This document shows positions 9,849 to 62,737 of a DNA stretch of 64,000 bases, in pieces (the first letter of the stretch is position 1; every line of letters begins with the position of its first letter). This DNA comes from Acidobacteriota bacterium (GTDB lineage: Bacteria; Acidobacteriota; UBA6911; RPQK01; JAJDTT01): positions 2,464,001-2,528,000 of the forward strand of contig OZ253580.1 in NCBI GenBank assembly GCA_965263035.1, given 5' to 3'. Made by a program: the position numbers and the translations under genes. The notes under the pieces were generated by a model. The model was given only the letters and a program-made list of their open reading frames with translations. It was not told the DNA's origin and did no database searches.

Positions 9849-10292
9849 TCAGACAACCTTGCGTCCTTTTCCCACGAAGTGCTCGCGGAGCACGTCGACG
9901 TTGCCTTCGACCCGAGCGATGCGGTCGCCGAGCGATGCTTCGACCTTGGCGATGCGTTCCGTAAGGGATACTTCGACCTGAGCGATGCGTTCCCTAAGGG
10001 ACACCTCGACCTGAGCGATGCGTTCCGTAAGGGATACCTCGGCCTGAGCGATGCGCTCCCTAAGGGACACCTCGACCTGCCCAATTCGTTCCGTGAGCGA
10101 GACTTCGACCCGGACAATGCGGTCACGGTTTTTGCCGATTTCACGGGTGGCGTCACGCAGGTCCGAGCGAATGCCCGCCAATTGTACGTTGAGATCCCGG
10201 CGGCTGGCCCGGAATTGGGTGAGGATGAGGCCGGTGGCGGTCAGGATGAGGCCACCGAGCGAAACGATGATGATCGTGATTTCGAACGTCAT
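9849..10292 (-). CDS. Small single-TM coiled-coil protein with 11-aa tandem repeats
   Basis: Hydrophobic N-terminus, (VEVSLxERIAQ)n encoded by 33-bp repeats, RVEG C-terminal motif. Confidence 0.8.
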   Translation of the reverse strand: MTFEITIIIVSLGGLILTATGLILTQFRASRRDLNVQLAGIRSDLRDATREIGKNRDRIVRVEVSLTERIGQVEVSLRERIAQAEVSLTERIAQVEVSLRERIAQVEVSLTERIAKVEASLGDRIARVEGNVDVLREHFVGKGRKVV

Positions 10293-16372: not shown

Positions 16373-16408
16373 GGGCGGATATTCGGGGCCGATTCTAACA
16401 CACCGATT

Positions 16409-16519
16409 GGGAACGGCGGCTTTCTTGCCGCCGATTGGGGGGGGTTAGGGGGGACGGTTAGTCCCCCCTCCTCTTCGTCTTCTTCAATCCGGAGGGGGCG
16501 ACAAGAAAGTCGCCCCTCC
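16409..16519. repeat. Composite REP doublet (REPIN-like), copy 1
   Basis: REP, G-run/GGACGGTTAGTCCC hairpin, pyrimidine tract, inverted REP; recurs at about 18000, 21057, 30191 and 35755. Confidence 0.85.
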
Positions 16520-16575
16520 TAAAAGGGGACTTGATGCTTGTCATATGTAGTGTGTAGTATACAGTACACACTCGA

Positions 16576-16959
16576 ATGAAGGACGATTCAAGTCGTCCCA
16601 GGGTCGACATGGCGTTTGGAGATTACATTCGAGAAGTTCGGGAGCGGCGACGGCGTGAGGACCGGACTTTCTCGTTAAGGCAAGTCGCAGGCCGCGTCGG
16701 AATCGAGCCGGCCTACCTGAGCAAGATCGAGCGGGGACAGACGCCGCCTCCTTCGGAGCGGACCATCCGCCGGCTCGCGAAGGAGCTGGACGAAGATGCG
16801 GACGTCCTGTTGGCGATGGGGGGGAAGGTTTCCAAGGACCTTCAGGAGATCGTGATGCTCCGTCCCAAGCTCTTCGCCGATCTGCTGCGTCAACTCCGGG
16901 AGGCACCAGATCACGCGGTGCTGCGGGTCGCGCGGGAGATCCGGGACGGGGATTGGTGA
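16576..16959 (+). CDS. XRE-family HTH transcriptional regulator
   Basis: FGDYIR, SLRQVAGRVGIEPAYLSKIERG, PPSE. Confidence 0.88.
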   Translation: MKDDSSRPRVDMAFGDYIREVRERRRREDRTFSLRQVAGRVGIEPAYLSKIERGQTPPPSERTIRRLAKELDEDADVLLAMGGKVSKDLQEIVMLRPKLFADLLRQLREAPDHAVLRVAREIRDGDW

Positions 16960-17004
16960 AGGACAGTGTTGTGGGAACCTGAGGGAACAGGAGAGGAGGA
17001 AAAA

Positions 17005-18000
17005 ATGATTGAACTTCGGCACGATAGGTTGACTTTCAGCTTTCCGGAGGTCCATGAGGAGGCGGGGTGCTCGATTTCGTTTTCGAGGACCCTGCGCATT
17101 CCGGACGACGACCTTGAGTATCCCCTGCCCCCGGGCATGGGGGAGTTTCCGTTGCACCATGTGGATGACTATGGCGGCCGCCTGCCGAAGCTCTGGAGCG
17201 ATCACGGCGGCGTCTTCATGCCCATGTACCAGGCGGAGGCGCTCTGGATTTCCTTCGATGGCGCGTACCCCATGGCCGTCAAGGTGGCCGCCGGGAAGGT
17301 CGACGCCGTTACGGGACAACCTTTTGGGAATGGGCTGAACCGGCGGCCTCAGGACTACGTCGTGATCCCGGACCAGCCCTGGCTCGACGGCTTCTGCGTG
17401 CGGAAGGGCCTGATCCGTCAGTTCGTCGCCATGCCCCTCGGGCAGGGCTATACGGCCGAGGAGCAGTTGACCGGCGCCGCGGAGCACGGCGGCCTGCAGA
17501 TCGTCGTCTATCCGATGAAGGCGTCGCGGTACGAGAGACTGAGGGCCGCGCGGCGCGAACCCTACGAAGCTGGTGTCGTCTGTTGTCACATGGCGGATCC
17601 CTGCCAAATGAGTCTGGCGCCCGGCGGGATGATGCGCCAGGAGGTCTATTCCGACGACTACGGATTCTCCGCCTGGGAGCGGGACGTCCGCTCGCGATGC
17701 TTCGTCCACCTGCTCAACAGCGGGCAATACCGCACGGTGACCGGATTCGCGCCGCCGTATGAGCCGCCCACCGCCGCCGACTACACCGAGGCCGGGCTCC
17801 CCTGGTTCGAGTATTTCGACGCCGACCTCGAGGCGCTGGAGGGGGCGACTCGGCTTGACCGCCTCGACAGCGTGGGGGCCCGCAGAGTGAAGGAGAGGAC
17901 ACCGCCGCTGGACGGGGGCGAGAACGTGGAACCCACACCGGCACAGATCAAGCGGCTGCGCAAAAGCCAAGTGGTCCGGGACGGAAGCGCCGCCTGGTAG
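17005..18000 (+). CDS. Hypothetical protein
   Basis: Long ORF with strong GAGGAGG RBS; motifs RTLRIPDD, PLPPG, PMYQAEALW, QPWLDG, RQFVAMPLG; function not recognised. Confidence 0.8.
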   Translation: MIELRHDRLTFSFPEVHEEAGCSISFSRTLRIPDDDLEYPLPPGMGEFPLHHVDDYGGRLPKLWSDHGGVFMPMYQAEALWISFDGAYPMAVKVAAGKVDAVTGQPFGNGLNRRPQDYVVIPDQPWLDGFCVRKGLIRQFVAMPLGQGYTAEEQLTGAAEHGGLQIVVYPMKASRYERLRAARREPYEAGVVCCHMADPCQMSLAPGGMMRQEVYSDDYGFSAWERDVRSRCFVHLLNSGQYRTVTGFAPPYEPPTAADYTEAGLPWFEYFDADLEALEGATRLDRLDSVGARRVKERTPPLDGGENVEPTPAQIKRLRKSQVVRDGSAAW

Positions 18001-18158
18001 GAGCGGCGGTTTTCTTGCCGCCGATTGGGGGGGGTAGGGGGGACGATTAGTCCCCCCTCCTCTTCGTCTTCTTCCTTCTCAATCCGGAGTGGGCGACAAG
18101 AAAGTCGCCCCTCCCAGCGGGCGGCAAGAAAGCCGCCCGTCCTAGCGGGCGACAAGAA
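18000..18158. repeat. Composite REP doublet copy 2 plus extra REPs (last one split by the intron)
   Basis: Near-identical to 21057-21175. Confidence 0.85.
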
Positions 18159-18801
18159 GTCGCGGTAGGGACACCGGTTGCCCAGCGCCCCCCGCGCAGA
18201 TCCGTGCGTGCCCGTTAAGGCACACGGCTCCTACCTCAGGTAGTGACGGCAGGTCGCGACGCCCGCCGTATCCGACCCCCGCCTGTGTCACGGTCATCCG
18301 GCTCTGGGTCCGGTCCGTACTTTGGTGAGCCGAATTCCCCTTGGCTCCATCCCTTCGCTCCACGGACTCCGCAGAAAGTTCCCCCTCTTTGTTCGCCCGC
18401 TTCATCACTACTATGGATGTATCCGATTGCTTGCTCTTTCCCCTCATGGGTTACGGCTTTCTCCTTTCCCACGAGGCCCCGGCTCTCGCCGGGGAGAGAC
18501 CAAGCCCTCCCAGGTCCCGACACCAGATGTACGTACGTGCATGGGTTCTTTGACACCGCGGAGCCCGGCCGTCCCTCACCTTGGCGGTCCAGCCGGTGTT
18601 GCCTTCGACCGCGACTACAGCCTCGGCACTTCCGATCAAGGAGCTTTCGATGCTCAATAGCCTGCCCATACGCACCGCTACCGACGCTTCGCCGACGCCC
18701 TCACGGACGCCCACGCACGGCTCGCGGAGAAACGTGGATGGTTAGTCCTTTCGTTTCAGCGGACTTTCACCGCCTATCTTGTGCCAGTTAGCCTGGCGCA
18801 C
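18159..18801 (-). mobile_element. ORF-less group II intron (IIB-like), 643 nt
   Basis: 5' GTGCG at 18801; domain V GAGCCGTGTGCCTTAACGGGCACGCACGGATC; 3' end CCCTACCGCGAC; no RT ORF. Confidence 0.9.
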
Positions 18802-18812
18802 AGTTGCCCCTC

Positions 18813-19487
18813 CTATTCCTTCTCGAAAAGGAGAAACTCCCTTTCTCTCAATCCGGCTCTCCTTGGATTCTCGCGGATATATTCCAGGCACTTCAAAAAG
18901 TGCAGAGGGTGCCGGATCAACCGATCCCAATAGTCTTTCTGCCAGATCTTGGCGTATTTTCCGGTCTTCTGGTTGATCACATGAGCCGTAAATCCCTTCC
19001 AGGATCTGACGATGTCTCTGAGATGATGAGAGCCAAGAGGGCGAAACAGCACATGGACATGGTTGGGCATCACGACGAAGGCGGCCAGTTCGTAACGCCG
19101 GCCGTCGAAATGCCGCAGTGAGTCAGCCACGACTCGGGCCAAGGCCGGATCCTTCAGGAGGCAGAACCCGTTCCCTTGATCCAGCCAGTCCTCGATTCGT
19201 CGAGAGAATTGATTGACGTAGCGTTTCGCCGTCCGCGCATCCCAGGGTCTTGGATGGTGTTTCAACCAGAATCTTCGTTCTTCCCGCCACTGATCCAGTT
19301 TGGCGTGTGGAAGCGAATCTCCCAGCCGCCAAGTCACGAAGACGAAGTGTTCACGCTTGTGCCAATGGGGCAGGCGGTTGTACCAAACGTCAATGGTTCC
19401 AGACTGATCAAAAGAGGAGCCGAAGCTTTCCAGCCACCAATTCTTCGAATCGCATGCCACAAATTTCCTAACGATCCCCTCACCCAA
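18813..19487 (-). CDS. REP-associated tyrosine transposase (RAYT, HUH Y1 family)
   Basis: LPHW, FVTWRLGDSLP, VVMPNHVH (HUH), WQKDYWDRLIR, YIRENP; REPs on both sides; start uncertain. Confidence 0.88.
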   Translation of the reverse strand: MGEGIVRKFVACDSKNWWLESFGSSFDQSGTIDVWYNRLPHWHKREHFVFVTWRLGDSLPHAKLDQWREERRFWLKHHPRPWDARTAKRYVNQFSRRIEDWLDQGNGFCLLKDPALARVVADSLRHFDGRRYELAAFVVMPNHVHVLFRPLGSHHLRDIVRSWKGFTAHVINQKTGKYAKIWQKDYWDRLIRHPLHFLKCLEYIRENPRRAGLREREFLLFEKE

Positions 19488-19927
19488 TCGACGATAGATT
19501 GGGAGTATCCATGTTGCAAGTGGTGGGTGCTAATCGGTGTTTCCATCCCGTGTCGTTAGTACGTGATCTGTCCGGTCCAAAGGGCACAGGGTTAGGAGGA
19601 GCGTTCTTCCGCCGGAGGTGAGGCGGAGATCGAGCTGGATCCAGCGGGCGCCGTGCAGGGGGCGATGAGTGGACCGATAACTGGATCGAGGGACCTGAGA
19701 TCGTCGACGTCAGTCCTCCGGGAGGTCCGGATACGCCCTGGGGAGCGTCGGGTCAAGCCTCCGGCTCCTCCGCTTCGCTGCGGCCCTTCGGGTGACCCGG
19801 CGCTCCCCAGGGCGTGAAGAGCTTTCATGGCCGTAAGCAAGCTTCCGGCCAGACTTGACCGGAAGTTCGACAGACGGCCATCAGGGGGTCCACACGCTCC
19901 CTTTCCTCACGGGGTCTCTCCGTGGCC

Positions 19928-20875
19928 TCAGAAGGTCGCTCGGGGCGCTACGGGCAACCAGGTGCGGTCCTGCCGGACGAGGGTGTTGGCCAGGACGATA
20001 AGCTTGCGCATGACGGCGACGAGGGCCACCTTGCCGGGCTTGCCGCGCTCGCTCAGCCTCCGGTACACCTCGGCCAAGTCGGGGTTCCAGCGCAGGGCGG
20101 CCACCGCCGGCATGTACAGGAGCCGTCGCGCCCGCGCCCGTCCGCCCCGGATGAAGGCCCGGCCCTGCCAAGCCCCCGACTCGCGCGGAACGGCGGCCAG
20201 CCCGGCCAGACTGGCGGCGGCCTTGCCGCTGAGGGCGCCCAGCTCGGGCATCTCGGCCAGCAGACCGGCGGCGGTGGTGGCCGCGATCCCGGGAATGGAG
20301 GTGAGGATCTCCAACTTGCGGGCCCGCGCCTCGTCGGCCGCAATCAGCGTCTGCAATTTGCGGTCGATGGCGCGCAGGTGGCGCTCGAACATGTTGATCT
20401 GGATCTGGTTCTGCTGTTTGAGCAGGGGTTCGCGGAGCTGTCGGCGGCGGTTGAGCGCGGCCGTGCGCTGGCGCATCAGCGCGTCCCGGGACGTCTGCAG
20501 ATCCTGGAGCCGGCGTTGCGTTTTGGACGGCACCTGGGTCCGGCGCGGCTCCAGCGTGGCGGCCAGCTGGGCCAGTTTCCGAGCGTCTACGGCGTCGGTC
20601 TTGGCGCGGCTCCCGGTCGCCTCGGCGAAGCGCCGCGCCTGCCAGGGGTTCACCTTCGCCAGCGGCAGCTTCGCTTTGGACAGCGCTTCCTCGAGGTCCC
20701 GGTGGTAGGGACCGGTGGCCTCGTACGCGATGCACTCGACCGGAGTTCCGATCCAATCAATCAGCGCCCGGAAGCCGGCCGGGTCATTGTCGAACTGGGC
20801 GGAATGGCCGTCGGCCAGCCGGTGCGCGTCCAGGTGCGCTTTCGAGATGTCGATGCCTACGGTATGCTGTTTCAT
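19928..20875 (-). CDS. IS110 DEDD recombinase/transposase
   Basis: GIDISK, YEATG, AKTDAVDA, SIPGI, RESG, VAVMRKL. Confidence 0.95.
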   Translation of the reverse strand: MKQHTVGIDISKAHLDAHRLADGHSAQFDNDPAGFRALIDWIGTPVECIAYEATGPYHRDLEEALSKAKLPLAKVNPWQARRFAEATGSRAKTDAVDARKLAQLAATLEPRRTQVPSKTQRRLQDLQTSRDALMRQRTAALNRRRQLREPLLKQQNQIQINMFERHLRAIDRKLQTLIAADEARARKLEILTSIPGIAATTAAGLLAEMPELGALSGKAAASLAGLAAVPRESGAWQGRAFIRGGRARARRLLYMPAVAALRWNPDLAEVYRRLSERGKPGKVALVAVMRKLIVLANTLVRQDRTWLPVAPRATF

Positions 20876-21055
20876 CTTTCCTGTCTCCTGTGCTTGTCAT
20901 TCGGGCCTTGATGCCCTCGTATCCATTCAGGACATCGGGAAAGACGGTGGCCGACCTCACTCCCATACGGTTCGTAACAGTCCGCGGCGGTACGGTCCAG
21001 CCACCGCCGTCCGGGTCGCTCATGAGCGACCCGGACGGCCCCATTTAAACAGACA
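20876..21055 (-). ncRNA. Putative IS110 bridge RNA (copy 1)
   Basis: 5' hairpin, then a loop with ACCGCCGC/TGGGAG (matches target flanks) and a loop with ATGGATAC/GACAAG (matches element ends). Confidence 0.75.
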
Positions 21056-21056
21056 A

Positions 21057-21175
21057 GCGGCGGTTTTCTTGCCGCCGATTCGGGGGGTAGGGGGGACGAT
21101 TAGTCCCCCCCTCCTCTTCGTCTTCTTCCTTCTCGATCCGGAGTGGGCGACAAGAAAGTCGCCCCTCCCAGCGGG
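21057..21175. repeat. Composite REP doublet copy 3 (first REP cut by IS110)
   Basis: Matches 18001-18120. Confidence 0.85.
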
Positions 21176-24373: not shown

Positions 24374-24703
24374 GTGAATGTTGATCTGATCAGGGTCTTG
24401 GTGGCAGTGGCGGCAGTGGGCGTCGGTCTTGGCGGACTGACGTTGGCCGGCGTGCGAGGGCTGGGTCGCGAAATGCGGGGCCTGCGGCAGGAGACGCGGG
24501 ACGAAATCCAAGGCTTGCGGCAGGAGATGCGGAAGGAAATCCAAGGCCTGCGGCGGGAGACGCGGCACGATATACGGGACATGCGCGGCCACATGGGACG
24601 AATCGATTCCCATATCGGCGAACTCCGGGAACGCATGGGGCACGTGGAAGGACTGTTGAAGGGGTTGCGCGACGCTTTCGTCCAGGGGATCACCCCCAGC
24701 TAG
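24374..24703 (+). CDS. Small single-TM coiled-coil protein (33-bp repeats)
   Basis: MNVDLIRVLVAVAAVGVGLGGL, repeated IQGLRQE, HMGRIDSHIGELRERMGHVEGLLKGLR; paralog of 30323-30577. Confidence 0.8.
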   Translation: MNVDLIRVLVAVAAVGVGLGGLTLAGVRGLGREMRGLRQETRDEIQGLRQEMRKEIQGLRRETRHDIRDMRGHMGRIDSHIGELRERMGHVEGLLKGLRDAFVQGITPS

Positions 24704-24807
24704 GAGCCTGCGCCGCAGAAATTGATCTACTGCGAAAGCGGTAGAATCGGTCCATATTTCCTCGATTCCCCACTTTCTCGCTACGATCATTTCTACCGCG
24801 CAGACTC
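24704..24807. mobile_element. MITE copy 1 (55-bp internal deletion)
   Basis: Imperfect TIRs GAGCCTGCGCCGCAGAAATTGATC / GATCATTTCTACCGCGCAGACTC. Confidence 0.8.
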
Positions 24808-24949: not shown

Positions 24950-25581
24950 ATCGGGTCGAGTACAGGGGATTGCGCCCCCGCACCCTCCCACACCACCGGA
25001 CGTACCGTTTTCAGTATCCGGCGGTTGGAGTCACCCGAGGCTCTTTCGAGCCTCGTACAGGGCCTTTCTTTCCGGTTTCCGCCGCCGCTGAGACTTGATC
25101 TCCGCCCTTCCGGCTTGCCGGCCTCCACCCGTGGGCCTTCCATGCCGGGTCCGAGGAGGGTTCCCCTCGCCCCGCTGTCGGAGGTGGTTGCGATCCCGCT
25201 GACGAGTCCACCATAGGGCCAGTCCGACTCCTTCGGTCCTTCGCTCCACCGGCATTACCCGGCTTCTTCGCTACTACGACCTCTGCTGACTTCTCAAGGG
25301 CTCTCACCCTTGAGATCTCCCCGAGTAAGGTGCTGCATCTTTCCCCCCGGGCCGCCCGGCTCTACCTGATGCGTCTGGATGGGGTTCGGGTTTCGCTGTT
25401 GCTCGCCAGCTCACCGCCCGCACCCGGCCTCACTGCCGGTTCGTGTTCCTGCGATCGTGGGTTTGCCTTCCGCTTCCTTCAGCTTCGCCTCGCGGCTTCG
25501 CCTTGCGGTTCGGCTAGGGTTGATCCCATCACCTCCCTTGGGATCTTTCATCCCTTAGATACAGCCCATGTCCGGGCGTAC
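24950..25581 (-). mobile_element. ORF-less group IIC intron, 632 nt
   Basis: 5' GTACGCCCGGACATGGG; short domain V AACCGCCGGATACTGAAAACGGTACGTCCGGTGGT; 3' end CTCGACCCGAT; no RT ORF. Confidence 0.88.
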
Positions 25582-30577: not shown

Positions 30578-31121
30578 CTGATCTCCGTTGAAGTCCCGAA
30601 TGGGGCGCCTCCGGATCCCGGCGAACAGGAACAGCCTACGTTTTGCGATGAATCCGGTCTATACGAAGCATTCTTCCGTTGGCCGGCGGCGATTGTCAAC
30701 GTTCAATACATATAACGACGGCCGCGAAGAATAGATGATCGATCCTTGAAAAACGTGTCCATCAAACTCGAGAGTATCCATGTTGCAAGTGGTGGGTGCT
30801 AATCGGTGTTTCCATCCCGTGTCGTTAGTACGTGATCTGGCCGGTCCAAAGGGCACAGGGTTAGGAGGAGCGTTCTTCCGCCGGAGGTGAGGCGGAGATC
30901 GAGCTGGATCCAGCGGGCGCCGTGCAGGGGGCGATGAGTGGACGGATCAACTGGATCGAGGGACCTGAGATCGTCGACGTCAGTCCTCCGGGAGGTCCGG
31001 ATACGCCCTGAAGAGCTTTCATGGCCGTAAGCAAGCTTCCGGCCAGACCTGACCGGAAGTTCGACAGACGGCCATCAGGGGGTCCACACGCTCCCTTTCC
31101 TCACGGGGTCTCTCCGTGGCC

Positions 31122-32069
31122 TCAGAAGGTCGCTCGGGGCGCTACGGGCAACCAGGTGCGGTCCTGCCGGACGAGGGTGTTGGCCAGGACGATGAGCTTG
31201 CGCATGACGGCGACGAGGGCCACCTTGCCGGGCTTGCCGCGCTCGCTCAGCCTCCGGTACACCTCGGCCAAGTCGGGGTTCCAGCGCAGGGCGGCCACCG
31301 CCGGCATGTACAGGAGCCGTCGCCCCCGCGCCCGTCCGCTCCGGATGAAGGCCCGGCCCTGCCAAGCCCCCGACTCGCGCGGAACGGCCGCCAGCCCGGC
31401 CAGACTGGCGGCGGCCTTGCCGCTGAGGGCGCCCAGCTCGGGCATCTCGGCCAGCAGACCGGCGGCGGTGGTGGCCGCGATCCCGGGAATGGAGGTGAGG
31501 ATCTCCAGCTTGCGGGCCCGCGCCTCGTCGGCCGCAATCAGCTGCTGCATTTTGCGGTCGATGGCGCGCAGGTGGCGCTCGAACACGTTGATCTGGGTCT
31601 GGTTCTGCTGTTTGAGCAAGGGTTCGCGGAGCTGTTGGCGGCGGTTGAGCAGGGCCGTGCGCTGGCGGATCAGCGCGTCCCGGGCCGTCTGCAGTTCCTG
31701 GAGCCGGCGTTGCGTTTTGGACGGGGCCGGGGTCCGGCGCGGATCCAGGCTGGCGGCCATCTGGGCCAGTTTCCGAGCGTCTACGGCGTCGATCTTGGCA
31801 CGGCTCCCGGTCGCCCGGGCGAAACACCGGGCCTGCCAGGGGTTCACCTTGGCCAACGGCAGCTTCGCTTTGGACAGCGCTTCCTCGAGGTCCCGGTGGT
31901 AGGGGCCGGTGGCCTCGTACGCGACGCACTCGTCCGGAGTTCCGATCCAATCGATCAGCGCCCGGAAGCCGGCCGGGTCATTGTCGAACTGGGCGGAATG
32001 GCCGTCGGCCAGCCGGTGCGCGTCCAGGTGCGCTTTCGAGATGTCGATGCCTACGGTATGCTGTTTCAT
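31122..32069 (-). CDS. IS110 DEDD recombinase/transposase
   Basis: 315-aa paralog of 19928-20875. Confidence 0.95.
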   Translation of the reverse strand: MKQHTVGIDISKAHLDAHRLADGHSAQFDNDPAGFRALIDWIGTPDECVAYEATGPYHRDLEEALSKAKLPLAKVNPWQARCFARATGSRAKIDAVDARKLAQMAASLDPRRTPAPSKTQRRLQELQTARDALIRQRTALLNRRQQLREPLLKQQNQTQINVFERHLRAIDRKMQQLIAADEARARKLEILTSIPGIAATTAAGLLAEMPELGALSGKAAASLAGLAAVPRESGAWQGRAFIRSGRARGRRLLYMPAVAALRWNPDLAEVYRRLSERGKPGKVALVAVMRKLIVLANTLVRQDRTWLPVAPRATF

Positions 32070-32249
32070 CTTTCCGGTCTCCTGTGCTTGTCATTCGGGC
32101 CTTGATGCCCTTGTATCCATTCAGGACATCGGGAAAGACGGTGGCCGACCTGACTGCTTTTCGGTTCGCAAAAGTCCGCGGCGGTACGGTCCAGCCACCG
32201 CCGTCCGGGTCGCTCATGAGCGACCCGGACGGGCCTATTTAAACAGACA
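32070..32249 (-). ncRNA. Putative IS110 bridge RNA (copy 2, altered right target guide)
   Basis: Same scaffold as copy 1; plus-strand CTGCTT replaces CTCCCA. Confidence 0.7.
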
Positions 32250-32469
32250 AGCGGCGGTTTTCTTGCCGCCGATCAGGGGGGAACGGCGGTTTCCAACCGC
32301 CGAACTCCTGAGTGACAGTTTGGCGTCTAAGAATGAGCGATTGGAAATCGCCTCTCCGTTCGTCTAAGAATGGGCGATTGGAAATCGCCCCTCCGTTCGT
32401 CTTTTTGCAGCCTCTGTTCATGGCTTGCGGAGCAGGTCCCGGCGCCATATGCCACAAGGAGAACCCGAA

Positions 32470-48984: not shown

Positions 48985-49305
48985 ACTGTCTCTCTCTTGT
49001 CCACATGCCACCGCCACTAACCCGGCGGAACCGGCCGGTGCTCACGTTGCTCGCGTCCCGACCGCTGGCAGCCATCGTGCGTTTCTCAGGCGGGTCGGCT
49101 TCCGCATTACCCGTTTCGAGGCCTGATCAGCATTCACATGTTGCAGCATGCGGACTCGCTGAGTCGCCCAAGGCGACCCTTTGACATCGGAGTGCTTCAG
49201 TCCATATCGTTGCCTCCATGAACCGCTCCGACTGCTACCGGCTGGAGCGACAGTTGCCGGGTGGGATTCGCACCCACTGAGAAACAGCGCCTTTGCACGG
49301 CGCAC
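48985..49305 (-). mobile_element. 5' fragment (domain I) of a third group II intron
   Basis: GTGCGCCGTGCAAAGGCGC..GGGTGCGAATCCC start; TGAGA loop (49084-49088) complementary to the 5' exon TCTCA; no domain V or VI. Confidence 0.7.
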
Positions 49306-49337
49306 TGAGATATCCCGGCTAGATAGGCCGTAGTAGG

Positions 49338-53080: not shown

Positions 53081-53467
53081 TCAGGCGGCGGTGCCGCGTC
53101 CGTTGCGGACGAAGAATTCCCGGAGCACGTCGAGCGTACCCTCGAGGCGAGCCATGCGTTCTTCGAGCCGGCCCATGCGGTTGCGGAGATCCCCGAGCCC
53201 GGTATCCATGTGGTTGCGGAGATCCCCGAGCCCGGTATCCATGTGGCTGCGGAGATTCCCGAACCCGGTATCCATGCGGTCGCGCAGATTCCCGTTCTCG
53301 GTATCCATGTGGGCGCGCAAATTCCCGTTCTCGGTATCCACGTGGACTCGGAGATCCGAGATGTCGCCGCGCAGCTCCTTGATGTCCTGGCGCGTGACGC
53401 GGTGCAGGTAGAGCATGAGGCCAACGATGACGGCAGGGGAAATCCACTGGAAGAGTTCAGGTGACAT
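53081..53467 (-). CDS. Small single-TM coiled-coil protein with 11-aa tandem repeats
   Basis: MSPELFQWISPAVIVGLML, (HMDTGxGxLRx)n from 33-bp repeats, MARLEGTLDVLREFFV. Confidence 0.82.
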   Translation of the reverse strand: MSPELFQWISPAVIVGLMLYLHRVTRQDIKELRGDISDLRVHVDTENGNLRAHMDTENGNLRDRMDTGFGNLRSHMDTGLGDLRNHMDTGLGDLRNRMGRLEERMARLEGTLDVLREFFVRNGRGTAA

Positions 53468-56252: not shown

Positions 56253-56348
56253 AAATGGAGCGGCGGTTTCCGGCCGCCGAACTCCGGACGGGGCATGGGG
56301 GAATGGGCGGAAGAGAAGAATGGGCGACTGGAGAGTCTCCCCTCCTGG

Positions 56349-56507
56349 GAGCCTGCGCGGCAGAAATTGATCTACTGCGAAAGCGGTAGAATCGGTCCGT
56401 ATTTCCCCGATTTCTCGGCGAATAGAACAACTATGCACCTCCAAATCGAGAAAATCTGGCCTCGATTCCCCGATTTCTCGCAACGATCATTTCTACCGCG
56501 CAGACTC
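56349..56507. mobile_element. MITE copy 2 (159 bp, CTGG target duplication)
   Basis: Same TIRs as copy 1; CTGG on both sides. Confidence 0.85.
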
Positions 56508-62135: not shown

Positions 62136-62578
62136 GGACTCCGGTCCGGTTTGCCGTATTTCTGGTGGTCGTTTGGTGGGCGCTGGTTTGGGGAGCGTTC
62201 GCGGCGGAGACGGACGCGGCGGAAAACGCCAAACTGGCGGCGGCCGCGACTCATTACGAGGTCGTCCAGCTCAAGATCGAGTCGGGCGAGTTCGACGCGG
62301 TCCTGCCCGAGATCCAGAAGATCCTGGACTTGGACTTCGGTGCGGCGAATGAAGGGGTCCTGACGCTTTCCGTGCTGAACCTGGGCGAGCAGTTGCTGAA
62401 TGCGGATCAGCATGAGCTGGCCCGGCAGGCGGTGGACGCGAGCTTGAAGGCCGTCGACCAGCCGCACAACCAGTTCATGCTGCTCATGTTCAAGGCCCGG
62501 GTCTTCAGAGACGAGGGTGAGACCGACGCCGCCCTCGAAACCTACCGCTCCGCCCAGCAACTGGTCCAGCAGTTCTAG
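62132..62578 (+). CDS. Secreted TPR-like helical protein
   Basis: Signal peptide ending GAFA, helical repeats; third gene of the sigma operon. Confidence 0.7.
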   Translation: MRTPVRFAVFLVVVWWALVWGAFAAETDAAENAKLAAAATHYEVVQLKIESGEFDAVLPEIQKILDLDFGAANEGVLTLSVLNLGEQLLNADQHELARQAVDASLKAVDQPHNQFMLLMFKARVFRDEGETDAALETYRSAQQLVQQF

Positions 62579-62737
62579 GAGCCTGCGCCGCAGAAATTGA
62601 GCTACTGCGAAAGCGGTAGAATCGGTCCATATTTCCCCGATTTCTCGGCGAATAGAACAACTATGCACCTCCAAATCGAGAAAATCCGGCCTCGATTCCC
62701 CACTTTCTCGCTACGATCATTTCTACCGCGCAGACTC
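62579..62737. mobile_element. MITE copy 3 (159 bp)
   Basis: Near-identical to 56349-56507. Confidence 0.85.

Follow-up and report, generated by a model that had tools for sequence, protein, structure and literature searches.

REP repeats as the preferred target of an IS110 element and two group II introns in an Acidobacteriota genome

Why should a single gene for a REP-associated tyrosine transposase (RAYT) lie between repetitive extragenic palindromic (REP) sequences that have each been split by a different mobile element? This is the arrangement at positions 16403-21173 of the 64,000-nucleotide stretch of DNA analysed here (the window), which comprises bases 2464001-2528000 of a complete 6,198,070-base Acidobacteriota genome (G000; other G-numbers denote sister genomes). 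The original prediction for this DNA took the RAYT locus to be a shared landing site for RNA-programmed elements, and its description of the locus was confirmed. The RAYT does lie between REPs, and each flanking REP is split by a different element: an IS110-family insertion sequence (IS) at the CT core of CCGCCG-CT-CCCAAT upstream and, 11 nt past the TAG stop codon of the RAYT, a group II intron that lacks an open reading frame (ORF), both with exactly the predicted junction strings. The IIC intron (24950-25581) and second IS110 (30773-32251) placed elsewhere in the window were also present, with a REP at the 5' exon of the former and at the left end of the latter. We refer to the intron beside the RAYT as intron A and to the IIC-like intron as intron C. 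The order within the locus is a REPIN (a REP doublet), a helix-turn-helix (HTH) gene, a 344-aa gene, a REPIN with tandem REPs, intron A, RAYT, IS110 and a further REPIN. The features on which the argument depends are these:

16403-16524: REPIN copy 1 (antisense REP, central GGGGGGAC..GTCCCCCC hairpin, sense REP)
18002-18119: REPIN copy 2, with a further tandem REP at 18116-18147
18147-18158, - strand: 3' exon part of the REP that intron A interrupts, reading TTCTTGTCGCCC on the - strand
18159-18801, - strand: intron A, ORF-less group II intron of 643 nt, with domains V/VI at 18159-18232
18802-18813, - strand: 5' exon half of the same split REP (GGAGGGGCAACT on the - strand), overlapping the last base of the RAYT stop codon
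18813-19487, - strand: RAYT, with HUH motif and catalytic Tyr motif
19497-19505, - strand: remaining tail of the IS110-split REP, which reads CT-CCCAATC on the - strand and lies 10-18 nt upstream of the RAYT start
19506-21055, - strand: IS110-family element of 1550 nt with a CT core on both sides; transposase at 19928-20875
20873-21040, - strand: predicted bridge RNA in the IS110 left end (5' hairpin, target loop, donor loop)
21056-21173: REPIN copy 3, whose first arm is the REP split by IS110
24950-25581, - strand: intron C, ORF-less, probably IIC-like group II intron of 632 nt that immediately follows a REP hairpin, the 5' exon being ...AAGAAAGTCGCCGCTC
30775-32249, - strand (30773-32251 with both CT): second IS110 copy, 1475 nt, with a REP at its left end (32250-32289)

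Comparison of these sequences indicates that this is very probably an ordinary RAYT amid its own REP and REPIN repeats, and that REPs serve as the homing site of three resident RNA-guided mobile elements. The REP unit is a 28-nt hairpin, GGCGRC-AAGAAA-GYCGCC-SCTCC(CA), which occurs on both sides of the RAYT and frequently in tandem arrays; next to REPIN copy 2 lie two further tandem REPs, and intron A has split the last one. Two sister forms, GGCGGYTGGAAACCGCCGCTCC and GGGGGACAAGRATGTCCCCCCTCC, are also present. By a vectorised mismatch scan (<=4 mismatches to the consensus) the three REP subfamilies F1, F2 and F3 had 367, 251 and 131 matches in the genome, compared to 1, 3 and 0 in the reversed genome. 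A nhmmer profile merged tandem units (333 hits, E<=10) and was excluded from these counts.

The RAYT itself has the properties expected of its family. Its 224-aa product matches PF01797 (Y1_Tnp) at 35.1 bits against a cut-off of 23, and thus contains a Y1/HUH transposase domain. The closest solved structure is that of E. coli TnpA-REP (4er8, E 0.0011), in which HMHCI and YIYINP align with HVHVL and YIRENP of the RAYT, the HUH and catalytic Tyr motifs respectively. Its REP flanks are inverted, with a sense REP upstream and antisense REPs downstream. The genome holds two RAYT copies; the second is 68% identical, carries an in-frame TAG and is flanked by a G-rich REP subfamily, which fits one RAYT per REP type.

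Are the elements found in REPs across the genome? Copies of each element were located by BLAST and end anchors, the element was removed in silico, and the joined flanks were scored against the REP consensus (<=4 mismatches). The empty site obtained in this way was a REP in 9/12 full IS110 copies, 6/7 full intron A copies and 22/23 full intron C copies, so that most copies of each element lie inside REPs. By comparison, 78/20000 random 60-mers contained a REP, and a third intron family used as a control had a REP at 0/5 junctions. The position within the REP was also constant. The REP always ended at the insertion point of IS110, and intron A was always in an antisense REP in the same register. 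REP-loop sites of the intron A type recur in five sister genomes (G003, G005, G006, G007 and G008). These observations support REPs as the preferred target of all three elements across the genome.

The exceptions are few. The three remaining IS110 copies (at 1125872, 3696976 and 654683) share one other repeat, CACCGACG-CT-CCCTA, which is also found at a solitary right end (4205115) and reads more fully …GTCCGAGAA…CACCGACG-CT-CCCTAAAATAAGGGGAACAGATCATCAGG; the left guide of these three copies has one base changed, matching their repeat. Only one of three solitary IS110 left ends adjoins a REP. The seventh full intron A copy was inserted in GGTAGGGGTGCCC|CTTGT, and an intron A 5' fragment with a half-REP flank was scored neither way. 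The single exception for intron C (copy 436835) follows a non-REP hairpin and GCTC.

The control family (RF02003, here intron-3) was itself considered as a fourth REP-targeting element, and rejected on its 0/5 junctions in REPs; its site is CTAGCCNNNATWTCTCA. The set consisted of three intact copies and one broken copy that bear an intron-encoded protein (IEP), plus a fragment in the window:

48986-49322, - strand: 337-nt 5' fragment of the third-family group II intron (RF02003), an internal control that is not REP-targeting

Full intron-3 copies are about 2.4 kb long and have reverse transcriptase (RT) frames of 438-471 aa, and an insert of about 2.2 kb interrupts the one at 5.053-5.057 Mb.

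How might the IS110 element recognise a REP? On the - strand its junctions read ...AAAACCGCCG-CT-[IS]-CT-CCCAATC, and its transposase matches PF01548 (81.2 bits), PF02371 (68 bits) and NF033542 (207.1 bits, cut-off 140). The left end folds into a 5' hairpin followed by two stem-loops (minimum free energy -89.8 kcal/mol, z -7.17), and matched no Rfam family in gathering-score or E-value scans. In the bridge RNA described by Durrant et al. 2024 (PMC11208160), the 5' guide pairs with the bottom strand and the 3' guide with the top strand, core included. The guides of our predicted RNA obey this strand logic for both target and donor. In the first (target) loop, ACCGCCGC is the top-strand left target plus C, and AUGGGAG complements CT-CCCAT; in the second (donor) loop, AUGGAUAC and GACAAG fit the joined ends CATGGATA-CT-TGTC. 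A promoter-like TTGCAA-17 nt-TTAAAT arises only across the joined right end-CT-left end junction.

Natural variation supports this pairing. The left guide ACCGCCGC occurs with targets ..CCGCCGCT, the guide ACCGACGC with CACCGACGCT in the three non-REP copies of G000, and the guide GUCGCCGCU (G007, G004) with GTCGCCGCT in 3/4 copies and GCCGCCGCT in one. In addition, the copy at 78134 has an AAGGAG guide and a right flank of CTCCTC. Thus, three left guides go with three left targets, and the predicted pairing of the IS110 bridge RNA with the REP is supported by covariation. The 5' guide carries the REP 3' stem sequence of the top strand and the 3' guide complements core and tail, and this match to stem and tail would direct recombination at the CT between them. 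In IS110 relatives from G003 and G001 (L116, L117, L122) the left guides are GACGCCGC or CACGCCGC, with a TTGCAA...CT...-like sequence upstream that resembles a joined right-left end; these could be tandem copies or have a different left end.

Intron A lies within the loop of an antisense REP, with the junctions GGAGGGGCAACT|GTGCG...CGAC|TTCTTGTCGCCC, and matches RF02005 (domains I-IV structure) at 166.5 bits against a gathering score of 49. Two candidate exon-binding sites (EBS) were identified. EBS2, GCUCCU (about nt 158-163), pairs with AGGAGC, and EBS1, AGUCGC (about nt 186-191), lies in a hairpin loop just before GAAGGCAAC and is the sole 6-mer of the intron complementary to GCGACT. EBS1 and exon vary together in the genus: AGUCGC is found with GCGACT, AGUCCC with GGGACT (in G002, at a REP of the G-rich subfamily), and AAUCGC with GCGATT (G005). 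In two further variants both sites are changed, GGGUGC and CCUAC occurring with GCACCC or GTGCCC and GTAGG, and GGAUGC and CAUGCA with GCATCT and TGCATG (G004). The EBS1/EBS2 pairing is therefore supported by variants that match five exon types. As AGGAGC and GCGACT are the tail and stem of the antisense REP, reading them in this way would result in reverse splicing into the hairpin loop.

Sister genomes G002, G004, G005 and G007 contain longer versions of intron A (about 1.9 kb), in which domain IV carries a 1.27-kb insert. The 1912-nt relatives in G002 and G004 encode a protein that matches RVT_1, with a weak maturase match and no match to HNH. The copies in G000 retain only the first 39-55 and the last ~30 codons of this ORF. 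Intron A thus probably derives by internal deletion from a group II intron; its relatives encode a protein without a detected endonuclease domain. Such ORF-less copies would be moved in trans.

Intron C matches RF02001 (80.6 bits) and RF01998 (45.3 bits). At 24/25 5' junctions the 5' exon is a stem-loop-stem followed by GCTC; at the 25th (56971), CCTC follows a weaker hairpin. Two of these 25 junctions, at which only the 5' end is present, also follow hairpins, one of them being that with CCTC in place of GCTC. The stems vary (GGCGAC, GGCGGC, GGGGGT, GGGGAC, GGCCATC) while GCTC is constant, and the 3' exon mostly begins with CCA, the REP tail. GAGCG (nt 336-340), the only 5-mer in the intron complementary to CGCTC, is a candidate EBS1. 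Two copies of 1848 nt encode RVT_1 and GIIM domains in open RT frames, and the encoded protein had no match to HNH. The other full copies comprise 18 of 630 nt, the 632-nt copy in the window, and two that are broken by an IS with an rve integrase. Of these two, the one at 3.067 Mb is interrupted by an IS encoding a 342-aa rve integrase, and copy 3923178-3925592 has a similar insert of about 1.8 kb. We infer that intron C is IIC-like from its target pattern together with the Rfam matches to domains D1-D4, all of which are generic for group II. It inserts directly after a REP hairpin followed by GCTC.

Two of the three elements are group II introns, which use pairing between EBS and intron-binding sites (IBS) and reverse splicing. 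The three unrelated mechanisms of the original prediction reduce to two mechanisms in three lineages.

The orientation of the introns relative to replication suggests how they reach their targets. The dnaA gene (2.8728 Mb) coincides with the minimum of the cumulative GC skew (2,873,574), and the maximum is a plateau at 5.54-5.85 Mb; orientations were counted with either end of the plateau as the terminus. The sense strand was on the leading-strand sequence for 8/8 copies of intron A and for 20 or 21/25 of intron C, together 28-29/33 (binomial p about 1e-5 to 7e-5). IS110 showed no replication-strand bias (4/12). REPs are in the sense orientation on the leading-strand sequence in only 30-42% of cases; sense REPs are thus the minority there, and the strand bias of intron C opposes the supply of REPs. 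Introns with an IEP that has no endonuclease domain have been described as inserting into the lagging-strand template (PMC4424553). The bias fits a model in which the introns would insert into single-stranded lagging-strand template at replication forks.

Several points weigh against REPs as the homing site of all three elements beside an ordinary RAYT. The best NCBIfam match of the RAYT, NF047646 (REP-associated tyrosine transposase), reached 73.9 bits, below its cut-off of 80, and domains V/VI of both introns scored below the gathering score of 40 for RF00029 (36.9 bits, E 1.5e-5, for intron A; 38.9 bits for intron C). The match between guide and target is also imperfect in places. The exon of intron A in the window is GCAACT, with one mismatch to EBS1; intron C in the window is followed by TCTTGCC instead of the usual CCA; and a right-guide variant, AAGCAG, in three IS110 copies (including the second in the window) fits their right flanks poorly. 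That each element's RNA matches the REP, as originally predicted, held for IS110 and intron A, in which guide and target covary; for intron C it came down to a 5-nt complement, a putative pairing in which neither GAGCG nor its exon ever varies. Relatives with uninterrupted REPs around the RAYT, which the prediction had proposed looking for, were found on one side. In G003 the orthologous RAYT, which is 90% identical and shares its upstream neighbours with that of G000, is followed by an uninterrupted antisense REP pair (GGAGCGGCGACTTTCTTGTCGCC...). Upstream there are 131 nt compared to 1740 nt in G000, with neither REPIN nor IS110, and thus the empty site of IS110 is reconstructed only, not observed. 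Finally, no cognate IEP for intron A was found in G000.

This last point bears on a different explanation, which we regard as rather unlikely: that the insertions are old fossils, left by elements that once targeted REPs and are now inactive in this genome. The RTs of G000 are of two types, that of intron C (two copies) and that of intron-3 (three intact copies and one broken), and both are 33-38% identical to the intron A protein. Intron A is therefore either moved by a foreign IEP or no longer mobile, and its copies in G000 may be immobile relics. Observations on the other elements point the same way: within the window the second IS110 lacks 75 nt of the length of the first, and its right flank, which is not a REP tail, is mismatched to the right guide; other insertions have broken one copy of intron-3 and two of intron C. 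Against this explanation, six IS110 copies have left-end segments at 100% identity, copies of intron A are 95-98% alike and those of intron C 93-97%, and the two RT-encoding copies of intron C would be its masters.

Could the RAYT locus itself attract the elements, with nicking by RAYT or single-stranded REP DNA at its own flanks favouring insertion? Both RAYT-flanking REPs are occupied, and the 64-kb window does hold two IS110 copies, intron A, intron C and the intron-3 fragment. Even so, this explanation has little chance of being correct. The orthologous RAYT in G003 is without insertion, the REP flanks of the second RAYT copy are unoccupied, and 11/12 IS110 copies, 6/7 intron A copies and all intron C copies lie away from any RAYT. 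Moreover, REP clusters without a RAYT are also co-occupied. A REPIN at 3.067 Mb (3066875-3070027, L143) has intron A in its antisense arm and intron C after its sense arm, both on the + strand, and at 6.115 Mb (6114886-6117114) intron A (- strand) and IS110 (+ strand) are in neighbouring tandem REPs, 37 nt apart. The shared landing site of the original prediction is thus not supported: the RAYT was hit twice because it is surrounded by REPs, and its locus is one example of a genome-wide habit rather than a special landing pad.

That the hairpins are not pre-existing REPs, but flanks co-mobilised with the elements or footprints of their insertion, is highly improbable: every copy of an element does share flanking sequence, as would any site-specific element, but about 700 REPs carry no element, the flanks fall in different REP subfamilies (F1, F2, F3) and diverge further out, unoccupied REPs of the same form are present at the orthologous locus of G003, and the RAYT with its inverted REP flanks is an independent source of REPs.

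The RAYT would maintain the REP pool, and REPs would offer the elements harmless insertion sites. Much of this has parallels in known systems. In the RAYT/REPIN systems of Nunvar 2010 (PMC2817692) and Bertels and Rainey 2011 (PMC3116915), as here, a low-copy HUH/Y1 transposase is flanked by inverted REPs, REPs number in the hundreds and also form doublets (REPINs), and each RAYT copy has a REP subfamily of its own; what sets this lineage apart from the systems described there is its tandem arrays of 28-nt REPs and its central G-rich hairpin. IS110 is the family most often associated with REPs in the survey of Tobes and Pareja 2006 (PMC1525189), and IS621 inserts in E. coli REPs (PMC11208160). 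Our IS110 resembles IS621, ISPpu9, ISPpu10 and ISPa11 in its DEDD and Transposase_20 domains, the CT core at its ends, REPs as its natural target, a left-end RNA with a 5' hairpin and two guide loops, the same strand logic and a junction promoter (PMC1525189, PMC11208160). It differs from that group in host phylum and REP sequence, and in that, inside a single genus, guide variants differing by one base follow the REP subfamilies and also a non-REP repeat.

RmInt1 is a group II intron that homes into another repeated element, an IS, by EBS-IBS pairing. Intron A resembles it in using EBS2 and EBS1 to recognise roughly 13 nt of homing site, in an IEP without a detected endonuclease domain, and in a strand bias that fits priming at replication forks. 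Its target differs: a REP hairpin (loop and stem) of which hundreds of copies exist. Intron C, for its part, is like group IIC introns (e.g. B.h.I1), which insert 3' of a hairpin (terminators or attC) with a short exon match (PMC4424553, PMC1702495). It shares with them a free stem sequence, a fixed short motif (GCTC) and an IEP consisting of RT and maturase with no detected endonuclease domain. In contrast to known IIC introns, its hairpin is a REP without a T-run, and most of its copies (about 20 of about 25) have lost the ORF and measure 630 nt. Bacterial group II introns that lack an ORF and rely on a related IEP acting in trans are described as rare in PMC4424553. Introns A and C are like them in their internal ORF deletions, and intron C has IEP-bearing relatives in the same genome; they differ in forming two families with 7 and about 20 copies, and intron A in being without a cognate IEP in the genome.

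IS110 targeting of REPs and IIC insertion after hairpins are therefore already known. We found no description of systematic group II intron homing into REPs in the literature searched (subscription journals and supplementary files lay outside its scope), although PMC1525189 comes near with a P. putida entry in one of its tables that reads "Group II intron 2/9", on which the additional files of that paper may bear. Within that literature, there seems to be no report of a non-IIC intron homing systematically into REP loops. The apparent novelty here lies in an intron that homes into REP loops and in three lineages with matching guides that exist together on a single repeat family. The result is a natural case in which two RNA-guided insertion systems, in three lineages, use one abundant repeat, with covariation visible within a single genus. 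It shows a route by which group II introns without an ORF can multiply to tens of copies in a bacterial genome, suggests that intron targets include a class overlooked so far, the REP hairpins, and provides natural guide variants that can be used for testing the retargeting rules of bridge RNAs and introns. It is also a warning that REP-rich loci, RAYT genes included, often mimic "hot spots" through target abundance alone.

A broader interpretation, which we put forward tentatively as a possibility, is that REP and REPIN populations are the main habitat of several RNA-guided elements in this genus, with guides retuned by single-base changes that follow the REP subfamilies. If this were true, bacterial group II introns would have a further target specificity beside the three listed in PMC4424553, which are homing sites, terminators and attC sites. 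The loop of a repeated DNA hairpin, probably single-stranded at the replication fork, would serve as the homing site of an intron lineage that is not IIC and whose relatives encode no detected endonuclease domain, and REPINs with their RAYT would form the base of a layered system of host, repeat and hyperparasite.

The two remaining genes of the locus lie between two REPINs; the HTH gene is outside the mobile-element story:

16576-16959, + strand: XRE-type HTH protein, 127 aa (PF13560, 49.7 bits; PADLOC capH model, 36.8 bits)
16966-18000, + strand: conserved hypothetical protein, 344 aa, of no family

The 344-aa ORF had no Pfam, NCBIfam or PADLOC match, and its nearest Atlas clusters are unnamed hypothetical proteins. 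This pair of XRE/capH-like HTH gene and 344-aa gene (16576-18000) is framed exactly by the near-identical REPIN copies 1 and 2, and is absent from the 1.5 kb downstream of the RAYT in G003.

Contigs from public sequencing runs cover part of the locus. Contigs from runs X4 and X9 match 18775-19529 without differences, extending only 27 letters into the intron and 24 into the IS, short of a 31-letter minimum, and contigs from runs X10 and X12 end at 19505, with the listed joints in REPs and sides of <30 letters. The window also contains tandem 33-nt repeats at 53140-53388 and 9905-10102 (families D6 and D9), which are probably coding repeats. A 74-nt repeat (family D18) occurs in three copies next to REP tails (24694-24767, 56339-56412 and 62569-62642). 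Contig depth in the bin 24464-24777 was far above that of neighbouring bins in 4/4 runs, and D18 may belong to a high-copy element.

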